Positions 51,794-64,000 of a stretch of 64,000 nucleotides of DNA are shown in pieces; position 1 is the first letter of the stretch, and each line of letters starts with the position of its first letter. Source of the stretch: Macrostomum lignano. Lineage: Eukaryota. The stretch is taken from positions 744,001 to 808,000 of the forward strand of contig NIVC01000292.1 in NCBI GenBank assembly GCA_002269645.1. The letters run 5' to 3'. Position numbers and translations under genes: made by a program. The notes beneath the pieces are model-generated. The model was not told the DNA's origin and did not search any database. It worked only from the letters and a program-made list of their open reading frames with translations.

Positions 51794-54700
51794 TGTCGTA
51801 TCGCGTGACTCAGCGGGTGTACATTGAGTACACTCGCCGTTTTATTTTATCGATTGACTGACAATGCTTCATTGAGCGTGACTAGTGTGTGCGTTCTTTT
51901 AAAACCCCTTGTGCTTTTATGCATCAATTATTCTTACGTTCGCTTGTTACCAAAATATAAAAGTCGTGTAGTGAGCTCAGAGCTCAATACTTTTTGATTT
52001 CTCGCACTAACCACTATAGAGTTGTTTTAGTGGCGACGAGGATTGTGGCTGAGCAATGCCTAACCACGCAATCGGAGAATATGAGGACTCCGAGGAAACC
52101 TGGGATGAGTACCAGGAGCGTCTGGAGCAACATTTTCTGGCACAGGACATCACCGACGAAAGTAAAAAGAGGGCCACCCTGCTGAGCGTCTGCGGTAGGA
52201 AAACCTTCCAGTTGGCCAGAAGCCTCTGCTCTCCAGCCAAAGTCGCGGACAAATCCTATGCCGAAATATGCAAGCTGCTGAGCGCTCATTTCAACCCAAG
52301 GCCGAGTGAGATCATTCAGAGGTTCCACTTCAATAACCGAGTTCAGCGCCCTGGAGAGTCGGTGGCAGAGTTCCTTGCGGAGCTGCGGAAGCTGGCGGAG
52401 TTCTGCAATTACGGCGGCAGCCTGTCTGACATGCTGCGCGACAGGCTGGTGTGCGGCATTGCGGACCAGCAAATCCAGCGCCGGCTCCTGATGGAGGCCG
52501 AGCTGACCCTCGATACTGCAAAACAGATCGCGCAAGCGGGCGAGTCAGCAGCCAAAAACTGTCAATCGCTGGGCTCAGCAAAACCTGCGGCAGTGACATC
52601 GGCATCGTCAGCGACAGAGAGCGACTCCGTGCTTCGAATGGAACGACAGCGACCGCAAGACAGCCGTCAGTCTGGAACAGAAGGCCGGCGGCGCTGTTTC
52701 CGCTGCTTGTCGACTCGCCATCCGGCAGCCAAATGTCCCTTCGCGGACAAACGCTGTTTCAACTGCAGCAAAATTGGGCACACCGCGAAGGCATGCAAGG
52801 CGGGGACACAGCACATGCAAATGCACCAGCTGGTTGACCAGCAGCCTTCAGACAGCAGCTCAGCTCAGGCCGCCGAGCCGCCCAGCCCAGCCGAGGTCGC
52901 TTATCCCTTCTACCATCTGGGTGCTGACCGATCGCAGGCCAGGTTTCCTCCAATCGTGACCTCTGTCTTCATCGAGGAGAAGCGATTCGAGATGGAGGTG
53001 GACACGGAGGCATCCGTATCGCTGATGTCCGAACGTACGTTCAAGGAAAACCTGGGAGGCCGGATGTCTCTGTCTACGTCAACGGTTCAGCTCAGTACGT
53101 ACACCGGTCAAACCGTCCGTGTCCTCGGTCAGCTCTTCGTACGCGTGCGAGCTTCGCAAGGTTCGGCCGAGGAACAGCTGCCGCTGCTGGTTGTCGCCGG
53201 TTGTGGTCCGAGCCTCCTTGGTCGAGACTGGCTACACCGCCTGCGGCTGGACTGGCAATCTATCAAGCGGATGGAAGAAGCTGATCCAGCCAAGGAGTTG
53301 CTACAGGAGTTCTCAGAAGTCTTCCAAGGTTTGGGCGAGTTCAGCGGCAAGCTGGTGTCCATCAGTCTGAAGGAGAACGCCAGACCAAGGTTCTATAAGG
53401 CGCGGCCGGTGCCGTTTGCGCTGCGCGAGAAGGTTGAGCAGCAGCTGCAGAAGGAAATCGACCAAGGAATCCTGGTGCCGGTCAAAAATTCCGACTGGGC
53501 GTCCCCGATCGTGCCGGTAATGAAGTCCGACGGCAGCGTGCGCATCTGTGCTGATTTCAAGCAGTCGGTCAACGCAGCTATCCGGCCTGAGGCTTACCCG
53601 CTGCCGAACATCGACGAGCTGTTTTCACGCTTGGCTGGCGGTAAGAAGTTCTCAAAACTGGATCTGAGCCAGGCATTTTCGCAGCTTCCCCTGGATGAGG
53701 ATGCTCAAGAGCTCTGTACCATCAACACCTCGCTGGGACTTCTTCGCTACACCCGTCTGCCTTTCGGCGTGTCGATCGCCCCCAGCGTGTTTCAGCGGGT
53801 GATGGACAGCTTACTGCGAGGAATTCCGCACTCTGCATCCTTCATCGACGATGTCATCATCACAGGCGAAGACGACGCCAGTCACCTCCGCAACCTGAGA
53901 GCAGTTCTGAAGGTCTTCAAGGAGTCCGGGCTGACCTTCAAGCTTGAGAAGTGCACCTTTTTCAAGGACGAAGTCACATACCTAGGCCACCGCATCGACG
54001 CCGAAGGGCTGCACCCGCTGGACGATAAGGTTCGAGCTGTGCTGGACGCGCCTGCACCGACTAACACGACTCAACTGAGGAGCTTCTTGGGCCTCATCAA
54101 CTACTACGGCAAGTTTTTGCCAAATCTCTCTAGTGTTCTGGCCCCGCTGCACAGGCTCTTGGAGAAGAACTCAAGGTGGCAGTGGGATCGCAGCGAGGCG
54201 GACGCGTTCAGCGAGGCAAAGCAGCTGCTCACGCACCCCAGCGTCCTAGTCCACTATAACGCTGCAGAAGAGCTCTACCTGGAGTGCGACGCATCGCAGT
54301 ACGGGCTCGGTGCCGTCATATTCCACCGTCGGGACGGCATGGACAAGCCGATCGCGTACGCTTCGCGCAGCCTCAGCTCAGCAGAGAAAAATTACCGCCA
54401 GCTGGAGAAGGAGGCCTTGGCGCTGGTTTTCGGTGTGAAAAAATTCCATCACTATCTGTTTGGTCGGGAGTTCAACCTGTTGACCGACCACCGGCCGCTT
54501 CTCGGCCTTCTAGGACAAGAGCGACCGCTTCCAGCCCTGGCTTCCGGCCGAGTCCAACGATGGGCGTTGCTGCTGACCGCGTACCGGTACCGTCTTGTAC
54601 ACCGCAGCGGGGTCTCCATGCTCCGAGCAGACGCCTTAAGCCGCCTTCCTGCATCAGCTGGCCCTAAGGAAGTTCCGGTGCCTCCAGAAGTCGTGCAAGT

Positions 54701-56250
54701 GATGGACTGCCTGGACGCCAGGCCGGTGACTTCATCAGACGTGCGCACCTGGTCCCGCCGCGACCCTACATTGTCACGCGTAATTCTTTACTGTCTCTCG
54801 GCCTGGCCAGACCGAGATTCCTGGACTTCCGATAGGGTGCCCTTCGGGAAACGGCACCAGGAATTGTCAGTTCAAGACGGCTGCGTTCTCTGGGGCAGTC
54901 GTGTCGTCATTCCTGAAGTCGGCCAAAGCCGCTTGCTCGACTGCCTGCATGTTGGACACCCTGGAGCATCCCGGATGAAGTCGCTTGCCAGAAGTTACAT
55001 ATGGTGGCCGGGCATGGATCGTGACATTGAGGCCAAGGCAGCAAGCTGCACGGACTGCCAGAAGTACCAGCGAGCCGGACCTGAAGCTCCGCTGCAGCCA
55101 TGGCCGCTAACGGCAAGGCCTTGGTCGAGAATCCACGTCGATTTTGCCGGTCCCGTCCAAGGTCGGATGCTGCTGGTGGTGGTCGACTCCTTCTCAAAGT
55201 GGCTCGATGTGTACGTGACGACAGCGACGACGACCTTCGCTTCGAGTTCGACGCCTTTTGTGCCAAGAACGGAATTCGCACATCCGCACGCCACCCTACC
55301 ACCCGGCTTCCAATGGCCAAGCTGAGCGAGCAGTGCAAACTGTTAAGAACTCCCTGAAGAAGCAGGCCAATGACGGCGGCTCCCTGGAGATCCAGCTGGC
55401 CAGATTCCTGCTCAGCTACCGTACTACACCGCATCCAACGACGGGAGTGGCACCGTGTGAGCTGCTGATGCACCGGACGCTGCGTAGCCTGCTCGACGTA
55501 CCGAGGCCAGACATCGCCAAGCGAGTTCTCGAGAGCCAGGAAAAGCAGAAGCAGCAGCACGACTCGGGCGCACAAAGACGAGTCTTCGAGGAGGGCGAGG
55601 CGGTGTTCGTTCAAGACTTTAGCCGCGGGAACGAGCGAACCTGGACATCGGCTATGGTGGTCGGCAAGGAGGGCAGCAACTGGTACAAGTGCATTCTGCC
55701 GAACAACCGGATGGTGCGGCGGCACACAGAACAGATGCGAATCGACAAGACTTCCCAGCGGCCTGGGCCGCTGCAGACGAATCCGGAATTTAGCGGTGAG
55801 CTCAGGCCTCCACTACCGCAACCGTTGGTTCCGCCGCCACCGCCACCGTCGCCGCCGCCGCCGCCGCCAACGCCGCCGCCAACGCCGCCGCCAACGCCGC
55901 CGCCACCGTCGCAGCCTCGACCGCTGCAACTTCCAGATCAAGGACCAGCACAAGCTCTCAGAAGATCAAGCAGAGCTCGATCGATTCCCGTCCGCCTAAA
56001 CTACGATGGGAGAGGTGTCGTATCGCGTGACTCAGCGGGTGTACATTGAGTACACTCGCTGTTTTATTTTATCGATTGACTGACAATGCTTCATTGAGCG
56101 TGACTAGTGTGTGCGTTCTTTTAAAACCCCTTGTGCTTTTATGCATCAATCATTCTTACGTTCGCTTGTACCAAAATATAAAAGTCGTCTAGTGAGCTCA
56201 GAGCTCAATACTTTTTGATTTCTCGCACTAACCACTATAGAGTTGTTTTA
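51794..56250 (+). mobile_element. Ty3/gypsy LTR retrotransposon (Mag-type), full length but defective
   Basis: LTRs at 51794-52029 and 56016-56250 (4 differences by eye); 5-bp TSD CTAAA; PBS TGGCGACGAGGAT at 52031-52043 (tRNA-Ser GCU-like); PPT GGGAGAGG at 56008-56015. Confidence 0.95.
52056..56049 (+). pseudogene. Gag-Pol of the Mag-type element, disrupted in the integrase
   Basis: Gag EYQERLEQHF, two CCHC knuckles, protease VDTEAS, RT FIDD, RNase H ECDAS, integrase HVGHPG..CTDC and HVDFAGP. Then a deletion of the SDNG segment near 55235 and frameshifts near 55243 and 55280 before PYHPASNGQAERAV. Confidence 0.9.
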
Positions 56251-57289
56251 CTAAATCTAATAGGTCTCGTTATAAACGGTTTACTCTCCCAATCTTGGGG
56301 CTATTCTTATGTCACTATCTACGACTCAAAATAAGTAACACGAGAGTAAGCACTAGCTCCGAAGCTGATTATCAGTTTCGTCTCCAAATTAGAATAGTTG
56401 AAGTATATCAGAATAGCTCGAATGATCGAGAGAAGAAACAAGGATTGAAACCGAGTTTATTTCATTTGCCTTACAGCTGGCGGAGTTCCAAAAATGAAAA
56501 GTTCTAGCAAAACTATACATTAAAAACGAAGCCCCTATTGCAAATATACTATATAATCTATTATAATATCTAATATTCAATCAGTACTCAACGATTCGAG
56601 ATAAATAAAGTGACGTGCATTTAGACAGTAAAAATCACAGATACTAAATTTGTATTTTTAAACTAAATGATGTGCTTACTATCTATAACTAAAACTATGG
56701 AATTACCGTTAGTACAATGTGCCCCTGGTGTTCCAGTGCCCTAGCTCCAGTGCCCGAGCTGCAAGACACTGTTGGCTACTGATTCTAAGCCCAAAACGTC
56801 ATTATTAATGATCGAGAGAGGAATCCTGGCTTCCTTCACGGATTTACTGTCTATCACGACTCACTGACGCATCACGTTTATATGTCTAGGCATCACATCT
56901 TAATTTCCCCTGGGACTTCCCCCCTTTTTCTTTGGTCTCGACTGTTTGGGGACTGGCACTTGGCAATTTGCCCTTCCGCTTCCCACTGCAACACGCTTTA
57001 TTCAGTCAAGCACTGTTGAGACTGCTCCTCGACAAATGACTAAGAGAAAGCAAGGCTAAGAATTGATTAAAACGAGAACAAAAGAAAAGCAGGTTAACAT
57101 TTTTTTGGTCCTCGCGCTCCACTGCCGGTATACTTATACCATTTTAAATGTATTTCCACTGGTTCGCGTTTAGTGCAATAACGTACTGGTATGACATATT
57201 AAAACAAATTTTACAGCATAACAAAGTGAGAAGCTTTTGGCGGGAAATTAATTAGCAGAATGTCAGTATTTTTGTCAGCCAGGTATATA

Positions 57290-57500
57290 ATGGTGCTTTT
57301 GGTGCCTCTGGTACTTCTGCAGCTTCTGATATCTCTGGTACTTCTGATATTTCTGGTACTTCTGATATTTCTGGTACTTCTGATATTTCTGGTACTTCTG
57401 GCACTTCTGGCACTTCTGGCTCTTCTGGTACTGCTGGCACTTCTGGCTCTTCTGGTACTGCTGGCACTTCTGGCTCTTCTGGTACTGCTGGCACTCCTAC
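57290..57500. repeat. 9-bp-unit repeat (GGTACTTCT / GGCACTTCT)
   Basis: Read directly; the paralogous array at 59110-59720 is expanded. Confidence 0.9.
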
Positions 57501-57601
57501 TGTTAAAGCGCCATTTTGTAGCTCAAAAGACACAAACTTAAAATGCAGAGCTCCTGGTTACGAGTATTTTCATTTAGTTTAAAAGTTTATTTGATTCATT
57601 T

Positions 57602-58402
57602 TGTGGTGTCTGGCCTGTTGAGTGCTCTTGCACTTTTTGAGTTTTTTCCGTGCTCCCTAGGCGGCCATCCCCGGACCAGTTCTGGCTGCCCAACCAGGCA
57701 GAACTGGTTGGGGGTCGCCCGGCACGGCTTGTGTCTTTCCCCGCGGCGGCCACTGATTGGCTGGGCCTGTGAGTTTGCGCTTTTCGCTCTAGCCCCCATT
57801 CAGTCAGATCTGCTCGGCGGGCACGCTGATTGGCTGAGAGGTCATTTCTTTTGTTGGGCGTTTCTCTCTTTCACACTGTCTGCCCCTCTACCCTGTTTCA
57901 AGCGAGCCGTGTCTAGACGGTCTCTTACTGCGAAGACTCAATTTATTGCATGCCAAGTGGCCAAGTGGTCAAGTGCTAGCGATATTCGAACGAGCTTCGC
58001 AGCTTCTGGCACCGGTAAGACCCCGAGTTCATTCACTTATTTAGCTTTTCTGAGGCCTTGCCGTAGCAGTGGTTCCATGGCTAGAGCGTCATCACGCCTG
58101 CGACTGTGACCACTGCAGCACAGCAGCGTTGTATAATTATTGTAGTACTGTACCGGTTACTTTATATAGTGTGTACAACCTACAGTATCGAAACTAGAAG
58201 CACTCGAGAGTGTCACCACACCTCGAGCTGCAGCGTGAACTCGGAGTGTCACAACACCAGACGGAGCAACCTATTATCGCAGAGCGTCGCCACGCCTGCT
58301 CGTATCCATACAAGTACCAGACAGAGTGTCACTACGCCTGTTATATTACGTATAACATATTGTACCTTGGACTGGGCACTCAAACCGACCCGGGTTACGA
58401 CA
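57602..58402 (+). mobile_element. Solo LTR, 801 bp, carrying a spliced-leader sequence
   Basis: TGTGGT...ACGACA termini; 4-bp TSD ATTT/ATTG (one mismatch). The duplicated segment shows the empty site: TTCATTTGATGCGTGTGCCA at 59822-59842 versus TTC[ATTT]...[ATTG]GATGTGCTTGCCA here. CCAAT boxes (ATTGG) at about 57756 and 57829. Confidence 0.8.
57906..57952 (+). other. Flatworm spliced-leader (SL) exon sequence embedded in the LTR
   Basis: 57915-57952 AGACGGTCTCTTACTGCGAAGACTCAATTTATTGCATG equals the last 38 nt of the Macrostomum SL as recalled from memory (not database-checked). It shows the flatworm SL hallmarks: 5' CCGT...ACGG hairpin and 3' TTTRTTGCATG ending in ATG. Confidence 0.8.
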
Positions 58403-58688
58403 ATTGGATGTGCTTGCCACTTTGCAGAAATATTTTGTTATCTGTTAACTGTTGTCACGACTAGTCAAGAACAGTCGAGGATTAGGGATTTAGGTCGGGA
58501 TTCCGTCCGAGCACTATCATAGGACGGATACTAATGTATACCAGATGAACTTAGAGCACGCATTAGGCATATTTAGCAGAACACTGACATTCACCGAGAT
58601 TTAAAAGCTAAGTTTGAGATGCTAAATCTGAATATTGCTTATTATTGTTAAATAATATTTGCCAAAAAGTTCAGAAAAATGCCACAGC

Positions 58689-59004
58689 TCAGATGCCAAT
58701 TAGAAGAGCCAGCAGAGCGCACAGGCAGTCAATGATGGATGGACAGCAGAATGAGACAGAAGTGCAGGACTTGCCACGGCCTCGTCCAGAGGACACCGGC
58801 GTCATCAGGATTCCCGATGGCATCGAGCACAACTCCAGCGGTGCTGAAGCTGCGGAGCTCGATGCAGCAGCCCCAGAAGGAGAACGGAACGCGGAACAGG
58901 AAGGCGAATATGGCGAGCAAAAGTGCGCAGGCGGATGGTAGCAGCAGCTTGATAAGGCTTCCTAGTGGGACAAATGTCGTGCTGCTGCCAGTAGAAGCTG
59001 CCAT
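58689..59004 (-). pseudogene. Copy B of the 5-TM membrane gene, deleted and frameshifted
   Basis: Keeps only LIKLLLPSACALLLAIFAFLFRVPFSFWG...RPWQVLHFCLILLSI; CCAT duplication near 58735 shifts the frame; exon 1 and the ALLLSLL helix are missing. Confidence 0.8.
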
Positions 59005-59109
59005 TTGCTCAATAATTTAAAAAGGCAGACTGACTATAAGGCACAGTTTAAAGCTGATGGGGTTTTGCAGTGTCCACGGAGCCAGCAACTTCAACTGTCA
59101 AGCTGAAGT

Positions 59110-59720
59110 TCTATTGGCACTTCTGGCCCTTTTGGCACCTCTGGTTTACTGGTTACTTCTGGCACTTCTGGTACCTCTGGAACCTTTTGGTACTTCTGAT
59201 TACTTCTGGCACTGCTGGCACTCGCACTCCTTTGGTACTTCTGGTTACTTCTGGTTTCTTCTGGTTACTTCTGGTTACTTCTGGTTTCTTCTTCTGGTTT
59301 CTTCTGGTTTCTTCTGGTTTCTTCTGGTTACTTCTGGTTACTTCTGGTTACTTCTGGTTACTTCTGGTTACTTCTGGCACTTCAAGTACCTTTGGTACTT
59401 CTGGCACTTCTGGTACCTCTGGAACCTTTTGGTACTTCTGATTACTTCTGGCACTGCTGGCACTCCTTTGGTACTTCTGGTTACTTCTAGTTACTTCTGG
59501 TTTCTTCTGGTTACTTCTGGTTACTTCTGGTTACTTCTGGTTACTTCTGGTTACTTCTGGTTACTTCTGGTTACTTCTGGTTACTTCTGGTTACTTCTGG
59601 TTACTTCTGGTTACTTCTAGTTACTTCTGGTTTCTTCTGGTTACTTCTGGTTACTTCTGGTTACTTCTGGTTACTTCTGGCACTTCAAGTACCTTTGGTA
59701 CTTCTGGCACTTCGTGGTAC
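59110..59720. repeat. 9-10-bp-unit repeat (GGTTACTTCT / GGTACTTCT)
   Basis: Read directly. Confidence 0.9.
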
Positions 59721-60408
59721 AATACTTCCGGTACTCCTACTGTTGAAGCGCCATTTTTTAGCTCAAAAGACACAAAGATAAAGTTTTGCACAGGCAGAGC
59801 CTTGATTAGGAGTATTTTCGTTTCATTTGATGCGTGTGCCATTGTGCATAAGTAGTTATTATTTATATCACTTTTTAGCAACCTTACTTGAAGGAAAGGT
59901 GCTGTCACGACTAGTTAAGAACAATCGGGGATTTGGGATTTGGGTCGGGATCTCCTCCGAGCAACTATAGAATTTTAGGTTCGCATGAAGTCGTGAGTAA
60001 CAAAATAGTGGCATTCACAGTGATTTAAGAGCTAAGTTTGAGATACTGAATCTGAATATTGCTGGTAATCTTGAAATAAATGAGAGAACAAACATTAACT
60101 TGTTTTTATTTACTTAAATTCAATTGCCAATGCATTTCGACTTTGTAGGTCATCGTCAGGGCAGTAGTGAAATTAAAAATTTTAATAAACAGTTGAATAA
60201 ATATACCTGTAATAAGTTGATTACACAATATAAATTAATGTACGTAGTTTTCAATCGAAACAAGTTCTAACACACGGTGCAGTAGCGTACACTCCAAGCT
60301 AAAACACGCTGAGTTGGCGGCACCCCCCATCTTTGATGTACATAGCCTCTAAAGCGAGCAACTCTACCAGGATCTTGAAAGAATCTTTAAGTTCAGAGAA
60401 CTGCAGCC

Positions 60409-61306
60409 TCAGATGCCAATTACAAGAGGCAGCAGAGCGCACAGGCAGTCAATAATGGACAGCAGGATGAGGCAGAAGTGCAGGACGCGCCACGGCCTCG
60501 ACAGCAGGACATTGTCATCAGGATTCCCGATTGCAGCCCGCACCACTCCAGCGGTGCTGAAGTCGCGGAGGTCGCTGCAGCGGCCCCAAAAGGAGAACGG
60601 AACGCGGAACAGGAAGGCGAATATGGCGAGCAAAAGTGCGCAGACGGATGGTAGCAGCAGCTTGATGAGGCCTCTTAGTGGGATAAATTTCTTGAAGGCG
60701 TAGAGATACTGGGCTCGCAGAGCGTTCAGCGGGACAGTGTGCAGCAGCGAGATGAGCAGGCTGAGCAGCAGGGCGCTGCTGCCAGCCCGGATTCTCTTTA
60801 GCTGTTGATCCTTGAGTCGCTTTCGTCTGCGGCCGGGCTGGACTCTCCTGTTGCTGATCCGTAAGTCGCTTTTGTCTGCAAATTTACTGCTTCAGGGTAA
60901 TAGAAGAATTTAATGTAACAAAGCTCAAATTAAAAGGCAGCTAACCTTCTTCGCGAACGGTAGTTACACAGCAGCAGGAGGTGCTGAACACAATCAGTAC
61001 GCCTAGGAGCAGAATGCCAGCAACCACAACAAACACAATGTACAGCGGTTTCAGATGGCTGATCTTGGCGGTGCAGTCTCTGTCAGAGCAGGAGCAGTGA
61101 GATATCAGCTGCTCAGGACACGTTACGTTAAAGGTCAACGTCTGTAGCTCCGAGGCAGCGGTGCAATCTAGCACGAACTGCGACAGGTACAAAATCATGG
61201 CACTTGGAAGGATCAGCCAGCTGAACAATCGTTTCTGAAAGGATTCAGCGTTGCCATCTTCAACAGCAGTTTCGATTGCTTCGGGTATTTTGGCTGCCAC
61301 TTCCAT
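60409..61306 (-). CDS. Unrecognised multi-pass (about 5 TM) membrane protein, copy C, 275 aa
   Basis: Exon 1 61306-60946 (361 nt), 70-nt GT-AG intron, exon 2 60875-60409 (2+465 nt); open frame; close to copy A apart from the repeat. Confidence 0.8.
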
Positions 61307-62256
61307 GATGAATTGAATTTCTATTTCAGTGATAACTGAACTGCGGTTTAATAAATTCACTAAAGAGTTATCAGTTAGTTTCTAGGTAATCCAACCCGTT
61401 CCCATTATAAATTATAGAGCTTAAGGCATGTATGTCCGGCCTCCGTACAGCTATTTTTAGGTATTGCGTTTGGTTTCTCTGTCAACCGCCGATTTCCGGA
61501 GTTGAAGCCGGCATCAACTGCGTACAGCTGGCAAGCATTGAACTAAGCGTGCATGTTTTGCGCGCAAGTCTTTCTGCGACTGTCTTTTTCCAAGAAATTT
61601 CACTGGTTTTCTTTATCTGGTGACTAGGATTGTATTATACATGTATACGATCTAAAATGTGCAAGTTATCCAGAAATTATCTGTCCAAGTAAATTATAGT
61701 TTTATCAGTATTCAACGATTCGAGATAAAGTACGAGCTAAGTGTTGTGCATTTAGACAGTAGGAATAGCCTGTGCCAAAGGGGTTTTGCTCTTTTATTTA
61801 ATAAGCTGCACTGACTATAAGGCACCGCTTAAGCCTCAGTTGCGCACGGCAGTTTTTTCCGTTGCGGCTGGGTGTCAGATGCTGCAAGTCAGTCGATTTG
61901 TTCCGACACACGGCTGTAAAACCCGCTGGTTGGCTATGCAAAATTCTATTTGCCTGCCCATTTTGCCAGGCACAATGGCAAGAGTTGAAATTAATTAGCT
62001 CCTTATTAATGCATCCTACCAGCCCTGCCGAAGCTCATGCGCGCAGAGACGTTGAATGCACAGTACGAGCTAAATTGCCCACCAAGATGCACATGCCAAC
62101 TTCGGAGGCAGATGTTAAGCGTTACGGCCAGAATAGCTCAACTAGCCTTAAACTATACAAATAAACACCGGTGTTTAGCTCAAAGCATTTTTAAAAAAGC
62201 AGCTCAGCTCACAACTCACATATTTTTTTCTTGTCGAAACTCTACATTGAGACTCG

Positions 62257-64000
62257 ATGGAGGCCAACTTAATAGCGGCTCTGGAGACCGGAGACAGCGA
62301 GCGACTGCTGTTCCTGTGCTGCGAAGTCGGCTCCAACATCACCCTGACTGTTGGCGGATATCGTGAAGGCAGAGTGGAGCAGACCCTGGTGCACCACATC
62401 GCATGCAGGACCAACAGTCCGCACTGCCTGGAGATCCTGATCCACCGGTTCGGACCGAGTTGTCTCACCTGCAGGAACCAGTACAACCAGATGCCGGTGC
62501 ACCTGGTCGCGCTGGTCCAGGATGAGACCTGGCTGCCCATGATTCTCACTGCTGCCGGCAGAGACTGCTTCAACCAGCCCGGCCAGTTCGGCCGGACAGC
62601 TGTGCACGCGGCCGCCTCGAACGTACGGACGGGTGCGGTCTTTGACTGGCTGATCAGAACGTGCGGGCGCGACTGTCTCGCCGTTCAGGACGACTACGAA
62701 GACACTCCCGTGCACCAGGCCGCCATGAAGAGGGACTACCGGTCCATGGAGCTCATCAAGTCGCTGATCGGTCCTTCTGTCTTCTATTTCCAAGGTCGAT
62801 GCCAGCGAACTGCCATCCACTGCGCCGCCATGAACAAACAGGACAACTCGAGTCTTAAGTGGCTGGTCGGTGAATGCGGCAGCGGCTGCCTGACTCTGAA
62901 GGACGGCCAGGGCAGCACGCCGCTTCACCTGGCTGCGCTCTACCAGAGGGCGGACTCGCTGCAGTTCCTCGCTGACCAGGTCGGCACGGAGGCTTTCTCA
63001 GCCAAGAACAACAGCGGGTGGACGGTGGTGCACCTGGCTGCGCAGAATACAGTGAGCGACTCCGCTCTCGCCTGGTGCATCAGCAACTTGGGCCCGCACT
63101 GCCTGGTCGCCAGCGACTCACGTGGCCGAACACTAGCTCACCTGGCCGCTCAACACCAAAGTGTGGAATCGTTGAATCGCATTAAGGACTCGCTTGGCCC
63201 ATCGGCTTTTCAGCTTCCTGACAGCGAGGGAAACTCGGCGTCCAACTACGCTAGAAGGAACAGCAGGAGTAGCCAGGTGCTCAGCTGGATGACGCAGACG
63301 CAGAATCAATTTCCAGCGCAGGAACCGTCGCTGGGATTGGATTCGAAGCTGCCAATCAGCACGTACTCCGATTCCGCCTCCCCCATGCAGAGCGGATTGG
63401 ATTCGAAGCTGCCAATCAGCACGTACTCCGATTCCGCCTCCCCCATGCAGAGCGCGGCCAGCGTTGTTCAAGTGAGTAAAAATCGACGCGATGACAGCTC
63501 AGGTACAGCCGTCTCGCCGGTTTCTGGAGCTTCAGCAGCTTCTGCCTCACAACCGGGACGAAGAAGCTCTCAGATGGAGCGTTTAGCCACGCATTCGGGA
63601 CGCCAAGGCTCGGAGCAGCCGCCTTCGCTCTCAAATAGAACGTCATCAGAGTATTCGTACGTCTGAGAACAAATTTGAACATGCTTCGATTTTAACCATT
63701 CTACGAGCGTACGTTACTTCCAAACTAAAAAACATCAACTTTCGCTATTTTAGGTGCCCACCGGAACTGGATCCAAGCTTTGCTAGCTGGAAATTTATTC
63801 TAGACGGTGGCAAGAAGCACCCAATCGGAAGGGGCGGCTTCGGCAAGGTGTACAAGGTGCTGACTGACAAGCTTCAGACGGTGGCCGTCAAGATTGTCAA
63901 GCTCAATGACACCAAGAACCCCACAAAGCTTGCAAAGGCAATTGAACGCGAGAGGCTGGGCATTGAGATTCTGAAAGGCATTCGACACTTGAACATAATG
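62257..64000 (+). CDS. Ankyrin-repeat protein kinase (about 9 ANK repeats, Ser-rich linker, kinase N-lobe); runs off the window end
   Basis: ANK motifs (GRTAVHAAA, GSTPLHLAA, GWTVVHLAA) at 35-36-aa spacing; donor GTACGT at 63657 (phase 2), acceptor at 63753; next exon reads IGRGGFGKVYK..VAVKIV..E..IRHLNIM. Confidence 0.88.

Follow-up and report, generated by a model that had tools for sequence, protein, structure and literature searches.

Spliced leaders fixed inside the LTRs of three retrotransposon families of the flatworm Macrostomum lignano, with probable capture and renewal through reverse transcription of trans-spliced RNA

Leader sequences linked to mobile elements have been reported from several groups of eukaryotes that employ spliced leader (SL) trans-splicing. 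In parasitic flatworms, 597 partial-leader loci linked to mobile elements (LTR and LINE) were discarded as false SL genes and ascribed to the integration of trans-spliced retrotransposon transcripts (PMC12582326). In dinoflagellates, relict tandem SLs are explained by the model of Slamovits and Keeling, in which genes pass through repeated trans-splicing and reverse transcription (PMC3229502). A different case is that of an LTR donor that takes over a trans-splice acceptor (PMC4558846). In the free-living flatworm Macrostomum lignano, one 35-nt SL with eight gene copies has been reported, and this leader is common to about 30% of the host genes (PMC8629364). The LTR retrotransposons of M. lignano have been curated into 137 families, in a study whose main text contains neither 'splic' nor 'leader' (PMC12801592). 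Here we analyze an SL sequence inside a solo LTR of M. lignano, located in a 64,000-nt stretch of contig NIVC01000292.1 (hereinafter the window), together with its relatives across the genome, and find the SL to be fixed in LTR families from two superfamilies, three families in all.

The window insertion (positions 57602-58402, plus strand) is a solo LTR of a Ty3/Gypsy subfamily, denoted B here, as indicated by its TG and CA ends, the family loci with 4-bp duplications of their own and a linked coding copy. The element is 801 bp long and is flanked by a near-perfect target-site duplication, ATTT (57598-57601) and ATTG (58403-58406), which agree in 3 of the 4 letters compared to 4 of 4 at most other family B sites. 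The empty target site described in an earlier note on this DNA is indeed present: in a local duplicate 2 kb downstream, a single ATTT (59825-59828) is found with both flanks joined. The LTR sits within one unit of this duplication (57200-61000), the units of which are 69-77% alike and include a short coding-like segment on the minus strand as well as a 9-10-nt microsatellite. Inspection by eye additionally revealed a separate gag-pol frame, Gypsy-like and 1090 aa long (52053-56049, plus strand), and a 471-aa frame with ankyrin-like repeats (62251-63666, plus strand).

Within the LTR, two CCAAT boxes in reverse orientation (57756-57760 and 57829-57833, minus strand) are followed, on the plus strand, by the junction of an approximately 85-bp deletion (57897/57898, identified from a BLAST break at LTR positions 296/297 and from the family sequences) and by the embedded SL unit of 47 nt (57906-57952), which consists of a 5' hairpin with an element-type 6-nt loop and the published 35-mer (57918-57952). 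Further downstream are a duplicated 8-mer (57953-57968) that replaces the AATAAA segment of other family B copies; the downstream copy (57977-57993) of a 17-nt repeat that, when family B copies are intact, occurs on either side of the SL insert; a splice-donor-like GGTAAG (58014-58019) that is similarly placed in families A and C and could serve a subgenomic mRNA; and a 3' part (58141-58402) that is approximately 85% shared with the SL-less sister subfamily A. The SL unit starts 77 nt past the second CCAAT box, close to the 75 bp given previously; however, this spacing appears to be a lesion of the window copy because the deletion between 57897 and 57898, which is common to all three assembled copies of this insertion, removed the TATA box, along with the 5' part of the predicted R. 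The AATAAA of family B is missing from the same three copies as well, and the window copy, a decayed solo LTR without TATA and AATAAA, is likely to be inert.

The segment 57918-57952 is identical to the published M. lignano SL in 35 of 35 positions (PMC8629364), so that the leader match proposed in the earlier note holds. The SL alignment score in the window is 76, compared to a maximum of 30 among 500 shuffles, and the exact 35-mer occurs 43 times in the genome assembly (G000) whereas its reversed control does not occur at all. At least 87 intact SL RNA genes are present in the genome, with seven leader variants (four loop types and three main 3' types) in separate arrays. In these genuine genes, a hairpin begins 10 nt before the published 35-mer and GTAAG follows the leader; the M. 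lignano leader appears to be 45 nt long. The SL genes fold into a donor hairpin, a U-rich Sm-like site and two further hairpins (z -4.0), whereas the window segment 57906-58020 has a different fold (z -2.1) and no U-rich site. The window unit retains the hairpin stem with a 6-nt loop that is absent from all seven SL gene variants, and no GT donor directly follows the leader, as had been noticed before. Thus, although the leader sequence is the same as in an SL RNA gene, the unit lacks the donor, the Sm-like site and the SL RNA fold, lies outside any array and can be ruled out as an SL RNA gene; an Rfam scan of 57500-58500 yielded no match near the gathering score. Two other loci (L033 and L049) contain the 35-mer followed by GT, yet are unlike SL genes both upstream and downstream. 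Many SL genes are interrupted in the leader by an element of approximately 450 bp that ends in AAC repeats and is flanked by a 15-nt duplication (L288:60-520; also L037, L038, L040, L042-L044, L046 and L048); an 832-aa ORF is located within the 14.5-kb repeat unit. We take this element to resemble SL-targeting non-LTR elements such as NeSL.

The perfect match in the window copy has to be viewed with caution at its last letters. At 57934, 57944, 57950 and 57951, the letters of L002, another assembled copy of this insertion, are those typical of the family, so that its SL ends in GAG rather than ATG, and the remaining copy (L003) carries two SL units. In run X19, the coverage of which is DNA-like, a single contig of depth 46 (45 at the right flank) bridges 57898-58029 with five other letters, including T57951A; this contig shows the GAG form in reads but contigs drop variants, so that the ATG form may coexist. 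A same-length 7-nt patch restoring ATG is found in one of the 30 family C LTRs, the SL depth in the RNA-like run X1 reaches about 4 million, and RNA-read polishing has been applied to a published assembly of M. lignano (PMC5730564). We are inclined to believe, somewhat more than not, that the last letters of the window SL are an assembly patch. The perfect match may accordingly be absent from the DNA of the animal, and some other host-perfect units (L020/L021 and L139) may be patches too; the family-level result is independent of this match. Assembled copies of one insertion also differ from each other in that they contain either two SL units or one hybrid unit (L017/L027, L020/L021/L026 and L003/L001/L002), which points to a collapse of units either once the insertion was in place or during assembly. 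At SL-bearing LTR loci, both SL searches and assemblies polished with RNA reads can be misleading.

The genome search for family B, in which the best 40 of 393 candidates were scored, provided 30 loci that, together with later ones and after grouping by flanks, represent 15 insertion sites, most of them with 4-bp duplications (G000:C2252 matched the B-type pattern but was excluded because the fetched stretch contained no LTR match). One or two SL units are present at all 15 sites, ruling out a one-off insertion. Where the promoter is intact, as it is in 14 loci, the distance from a TATA-like box to the SL downstream of it is 86-94 nt; the SL follows 18 nt behind a hexamer, ACTAAA or ACTAAC, in 14 loci and is itself followed by AATAAA. 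The hexamer is non-canonical, and the limits of R and U5 are those suggested by the motifs. Transcription by Pol II is expected to start about 30 nt after the TATA box and, since 86-95 nt separate the TATA-like box from the SL in B and C, the predicted start would be located approximately 55-65 nt before the SL. In intact B copies, the SL thus is likely to lie inside R, near the poly(A) signals, and not at the RNA start. This arrangement argues against both the placement of the SL at the U3/R boundary and the SL-headed transcripts made without trans-splicing that had been proposed for the window LTR; moreover, the terminal ATG of the SL is lost at 13 of the 15 B sites.

A family B insertion at G000:C94, which is interrupted, includes a primer-binding site, a gag start and the RT, RNase H and integrase domains in Gypsy order, and is 92% identical over 3.7 kb to the pol region of subfamily A. 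No 3' LTR was detected within 20 kb of it, and no two-LTR family B element was found among the loci examined (the best 40 of 393 candidates and further searches). Subfamily A (PR-RT-RH-IN order) is abundant and young, and the SL is present in none of its 10 elements compared (alignment score 16 versus shuffle maxima of 29-30). The two subfamilies have gag, pol and, within the LTR, only the 3' part in common, whereas the U3-R regions are unrelated and the primer-binding sites, presumably for two types of tRNA-Lys, differ (L061:1227-1246 versus L079:1518-1540); the difference between A and B is best described as a putative LTR swap. The tree of family B, constructed from the 3' LTR part (24 rows; L151 was dropped because its end is missing), is star-like, so that the order of captures is not resolvable from it. 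The Gypsy families A, B and C all possess an extra ORF downstream of pol with an N-terminal DnaJ (J) domain (L081:7679-8674 and L098:6894-7859, Pfam E-values 6e-18 and 1e-12; a broken copy in L062), which is 31% identical between A and C; 'DnaJ' is not mentioned in the main text of the curated survey of LTR families (PMC12801592).

Two additional families share this feature. Family C, another Gypsy family, was found through paired SL matches 7-8 kb apart; its pol shows 45% amino acid identity to that of subfamily A. The SL is present in both LTRs of all nine full-length elements checked, with LTR pairs 98.4-99.9% alike, and in 30 of 30 LTR loci (best 40 of 189 candidates scored). It is identical to the main host SL in 43 of 45 positions, starts 95 nt past the TATA box and 19 nt past AATAAA, and is bracketed by a 5-nt duplication that comes after CAG; in 29 of the 30 LTRs, it ends in AAT rather than ATG. 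Family D belongs to Bel/Pao (Pfam Peptidase_A17 and DUF1759), with 5-bp duplications and LTR pairs that are 97.8 and 100% alike. In 30 of 30 loci (best 40 of 106 scored), an SL-derived segment that retains ATG is located in what is likely U5, 13 nt from the end of the LTR, behind a GU-rich tract and with no hexamer 20 nt upstream. Thus, the carriage of the SL by both LTRs of full-length elements, suggested as a check for the window family, is observed in the related families C and D but could not be seen in B itself. At one D locus (L177:1057-1080), a uORF of seven codons starts at the ATG of the SL and terminates within the primer-binding site, ahead of the gag ATG. When relatives of D were searched with the non-SL part, the SL was found in 19 of 23 loci, the other four being cut short or interrupted. 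In 12 of 13 loci from Bel/Pao lineages that diverge by up to approximately 0.3 changes per site, 0-3 edits separate the last 21 nt of the SL from the host, compared to 4-11 for the first 24 nt, a count that is biased by the choice of four of the best-conserved loci with an SL pattern. Families B, C and D account for nearly all non-gene SL copies among the matches listed. Because subfamily A has no SL and C and D are distant, this distribution would require at least three captures, or else a loss in A combined with continual renewal.

Several loci contain traces of repeated capture. At seven B sites, a second SL unit is located upstream of the first. In six of the seven tandem loci compared, ATG is retained in the upstream unit, the 3' end of which is of host type, with 0-2 edits over the last 21 nt, whereas the downstream unit lacks ATG and shows 4-6 edits; the pattern in L003 is mixed. 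Between the units, the spacer duplicates LTR sequence located directly behind an AG that precedes the old unit, namely 14 nt after TAG at six sites (TAG|CGATAC) and 3 nt after AAG at one (AAG|CGA). Such a product would be expected if trans-splicing had used this AG of the element RNA as its acceptor and if the new leader, at the end of strong-stop DNA, had then annealed to the old one at the 3' end of the RNA. Simple slippage is ruled out because it would yield two alike units, whereas the upstream units have host-type loops and ends. In one D insertion, the SL is identical to that of the host in 44 of 45 positions, with a private change in all four LTRs, and the insertion nests (support 100/99) among copies in which the 5' half of the SL is degenerate; it represents a reversion to the host SL. 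The most informative trace is a B insertion, represented by five assembled loci, in which an SL ending in ATG is followed by 54 foreign nt. This insert matches a host dihydropyrimidinase-like gene (five loci; TIGR02033, E-value 7e-54) in 58 of 66 nt, and the match begins exactly after TTTCAG, 71 nt before the start codon; the donor was found by BLAST, two pattern searches having retrieved only the five LTR loci. The insert thus contains a spliced host junction bounded by homology inside the element. An SL-UTR join of this kind exists only in a trans-spliced mRNA and, judging by the join itself, the dihydropyrimidinase gene is presumably trans-spliced.

The next 16 nt of the same host UTR match the segment behind the SL throughout family B, AATAAA included (12-15 of 16 nt, 15 loci). 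The dihydropyrimidinase mRNA could be either the first donor and the source of the poly(A) signal of the family, or a chance homolog that guided a later switch; the star-like tree does not discriminate between the two. All four joins with a visible source follow an AG, compared to a local AG frequency of 0.063 in a rough, after-the-fact count. Taken together, the SL is fixed, the joins fall at an AG and at the SL 3' end, a host piece is present, and later units are more host-like than earlier ones. Separately, SL-headed copies of an RT-bearing LINE-like family were observed (L148, L161, L163, L165, L167, L168, L170 and L172), the SL being joined at no fewer than three positions, two of which come after CAG.

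We consider it quite probable that the SL was captured by a template switch of the reverse transcriptase onto a trans-spliced RNA and was renewed several times, since the embedded SL pairs with any new leader. The origin by reverse transcription of trans-spliced RNA that had been put forward for the window copy is supported by the joins and by the host-UTR insert; as for the donor, a trans-spliced RNA is upheld, but in addition to the element RNA favored previously, a host mRNA is possible. Initially, minus-strand synthesis would copy an SL-capped RNA, either that of the element or a co-packaged host mRNA, up to the cap and would jump to the 3' end of the element near the poly(A) site, so that the SL would come to lie 18-19 nt after a hexamer of the poly(A) type, the arrangement seen in B and C. 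The SL of family D is not explained by this step, given its position near the LTR end and the missing hexamer. The SL would then be passed into both LTRs. In family B, the AATAAA just past the SL, the segment around which resembles the dihydropyrimidinase 5' UTR and possibly derives from it, would put the SL in R, so that the strong-stop DNA of any SL-capped template could anneal: the embedded SL would share 45 nt of homology with each of the SL-capped RNAs of the particle, and annealing through it would give rise to tandem units, reversions to the host sequence and capture of host 5' UTRs. In the element RNA, the SL would lie within the 5' leader, away from the cap. The jump, the co-packaging of host mRNA and the R/U5 limits are what we infer from these arrangements. 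Among the five joints listed from the contigs of four runs, none is at an element LTR acceptor, a sample in which absence is not demonstrable; RNA-like runs cover the LTR in contigs, which neither rank expression nor show starts.

The mechanism proposed here covers origin and mechanics and is compatible with the SL being a neutral scar, that is, an accidental capture that hitch-hiked with expanding lineages and was re-copied as a by-product, of no use to the element. We give this reading nearly even chances: the older B unit has decayed to 8-15 edits from the nearest host type, the 5' half of the SL in D is decayed too, family A thrives without the SL, and the SL-headed copies of the LINE-like family demonstrate that captures of this kind are common in M. 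lignano; but the 5' hairpin stem in B is kept while the loop varies, there is no clean SL-less relative among the 23 D loci, and ATG is lost in both Gypsy families. Alternatively, the SL could be kept by selection because it rescues strand transfer for those genomic RNAs that have undergone trans-splicing by the host and would otherwise lose their 5' R. This possibility, to which we assign roughly one chance in three, is consistent with fixation in three families, two of them with near-identical LTR pairs, with the strand-transfer products through the SL and with the host-like last 21 nt in Bel/Pao, as well as with the SL capping of approximately 30% of Hydra TE transcripts (bioRxiv 2024.03.13.584568) and the avoidance by Cer1 genomic RNA of its SL1 site (PMC3315495). 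It is weakened by the abundance of the young SL-less sister A, by the origin of nearly all listed non-gene SL copies from just three families, compared to the 137 curated ones (PMC12801592), by the likely position of the SL at or beyond the poly(A) site in C and D, and by the Bel/Pao sample itself, in which the SL-based choice of loci, or the requirements of integration or priming at the LTR end, may account for the conservation. A still broader proposition, which seems to us unlikely, is that LTR elements of trans-splicing animals convergently adopt the SL as a universal R, which rescues trans-spliced genomes and recombines with thousands of SL-capped mRNAs, such that regulatory parts of the LTR, in the present case a poly(A) signal of a dihydropyrimidinase 5' UTR, are harvested under selection from host messages.

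The other explanations fare worse. The proposal of the earlier note that the SL marks the transcription start and yields SL-headed RNA that mimics host mRNA without trans-splicing appears improbable to us. The SL is complete at 45 nt, 5' hairpin included, and the near-identity of the family C unit to the main host SL would suit such mimicry, but in B and C a poly(A)-type hexamer is located between the distant TATA-like box and the SL, the window spacing is a deletion artefact, ATG is mostly lost, and the SL of D is next to the LTR end. Furthermore, a Pol II start at the SL would carry m7G rather than the trimethyl cap. Capture at the DNA level, or gene conversion, from the tandem SL RNA genes might be suggested by the number of these genes and by the loop variants that LTR units share with them; it is very improbable, given that no LTR unit runs into GTAAG or holds upstream DNA of an SL gene, that the joins come after AG, and that the SL-host UTR fusion occurs only in spliced RNA. 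Finally, polishing with SL-rich RNA reads probably affected the last letters of the window copy, to judge from L002, the X19 contig, the ATG patch in family C and the depth in X1, but as an account of the whole finding an assembly artefact is barely conceivable: the family-wide units have private changes and agree between paired LTRs, and neither 60-nt tandem units nor a host UTR that is 12% diverged from its gene are what such polishing would write.

SL trans-splicing should be harmful to an LTR element inasmuch as it replaces the 5' R that is needed for strand transfer, and making the leader a part of the LTR is one outcome of this conflict. The genome of M. lignano records strand transfers through the SL, one of them onto a host mRNA, and thus provides rare direct fossil evidence of host messages serving as templates inside retrotransposon particles. 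An embedded SL would give elements a recombination handle on many SL-tagged host messages. We predict that the same anatomy will be found among the hundreds of SL-bearing repeat loci that were set aside in parasitic flatworms, and also in nematodes, cnidarians and tunicates.

Retroviruses capture host mRNA by template switching between co-packaged RNAs, and the likeness to the present case is that a piece of spliced host mRNA is written between short homologies; the difference is that here one of the homologies is a widely shared leader, rather than a chance match or read-through, and that the piece lands in the LTR. Among retrotransposons, Frame, Cutfield and Poulter are said to have described in 2001 a C. 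elegans BEL element that captured part of SL1; such a capture would lower the novelty of the bare observation but not that of the renewal or the host-UTR capture. The impression in the earlier note that nothing of this kind had been described for LTR elements therefore stands for the anatomy and the host-mRNA capture, neither of which we found in print, but there is partial precedent. A literature search confined largely to freely accessible papers found no description of an SL fixed inside LTRs. The retro-capture of SLs as such is known; the fixation in the LTRs of three families, the anatomy, the renewal and the capture of host mRNA appear to be new.

Retrotransposon RNAs are substrates of trans-splicing in C. 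elegans (Cer1; PMC3315495) and Hydra (bioRxiv 2024.03.13.584568) as well, but an SL encoded in an LTR is not reported in the available text of these studies, and in Cer1 the genomic RNA skips the site whereas the spliced RNA is trans-spliced. The loci of parasitic flatworms resemble those of M. lignano in the association of partial leaders with mobile elements and in the origin by retro-integration, but the available account describes no placement within LTRs, family-wide fixation, re-capture or host-mRNA donor (PMC12582326). The dinoflagellate relict SLs are similar in that leaders are in tandem, with the newest one upstream, the joins at AG and the older ones decayed; there, however, it is entire genes that pass through the cycle, and the older SL is truncated at an AG within it (PMC3229502). 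In M. lignano, no whole retro-copied gene follows the leader: the host piece comprises only 54-70 nt, and full-length units lie inside the LTR, where they seem to have been placed by strand transfer.
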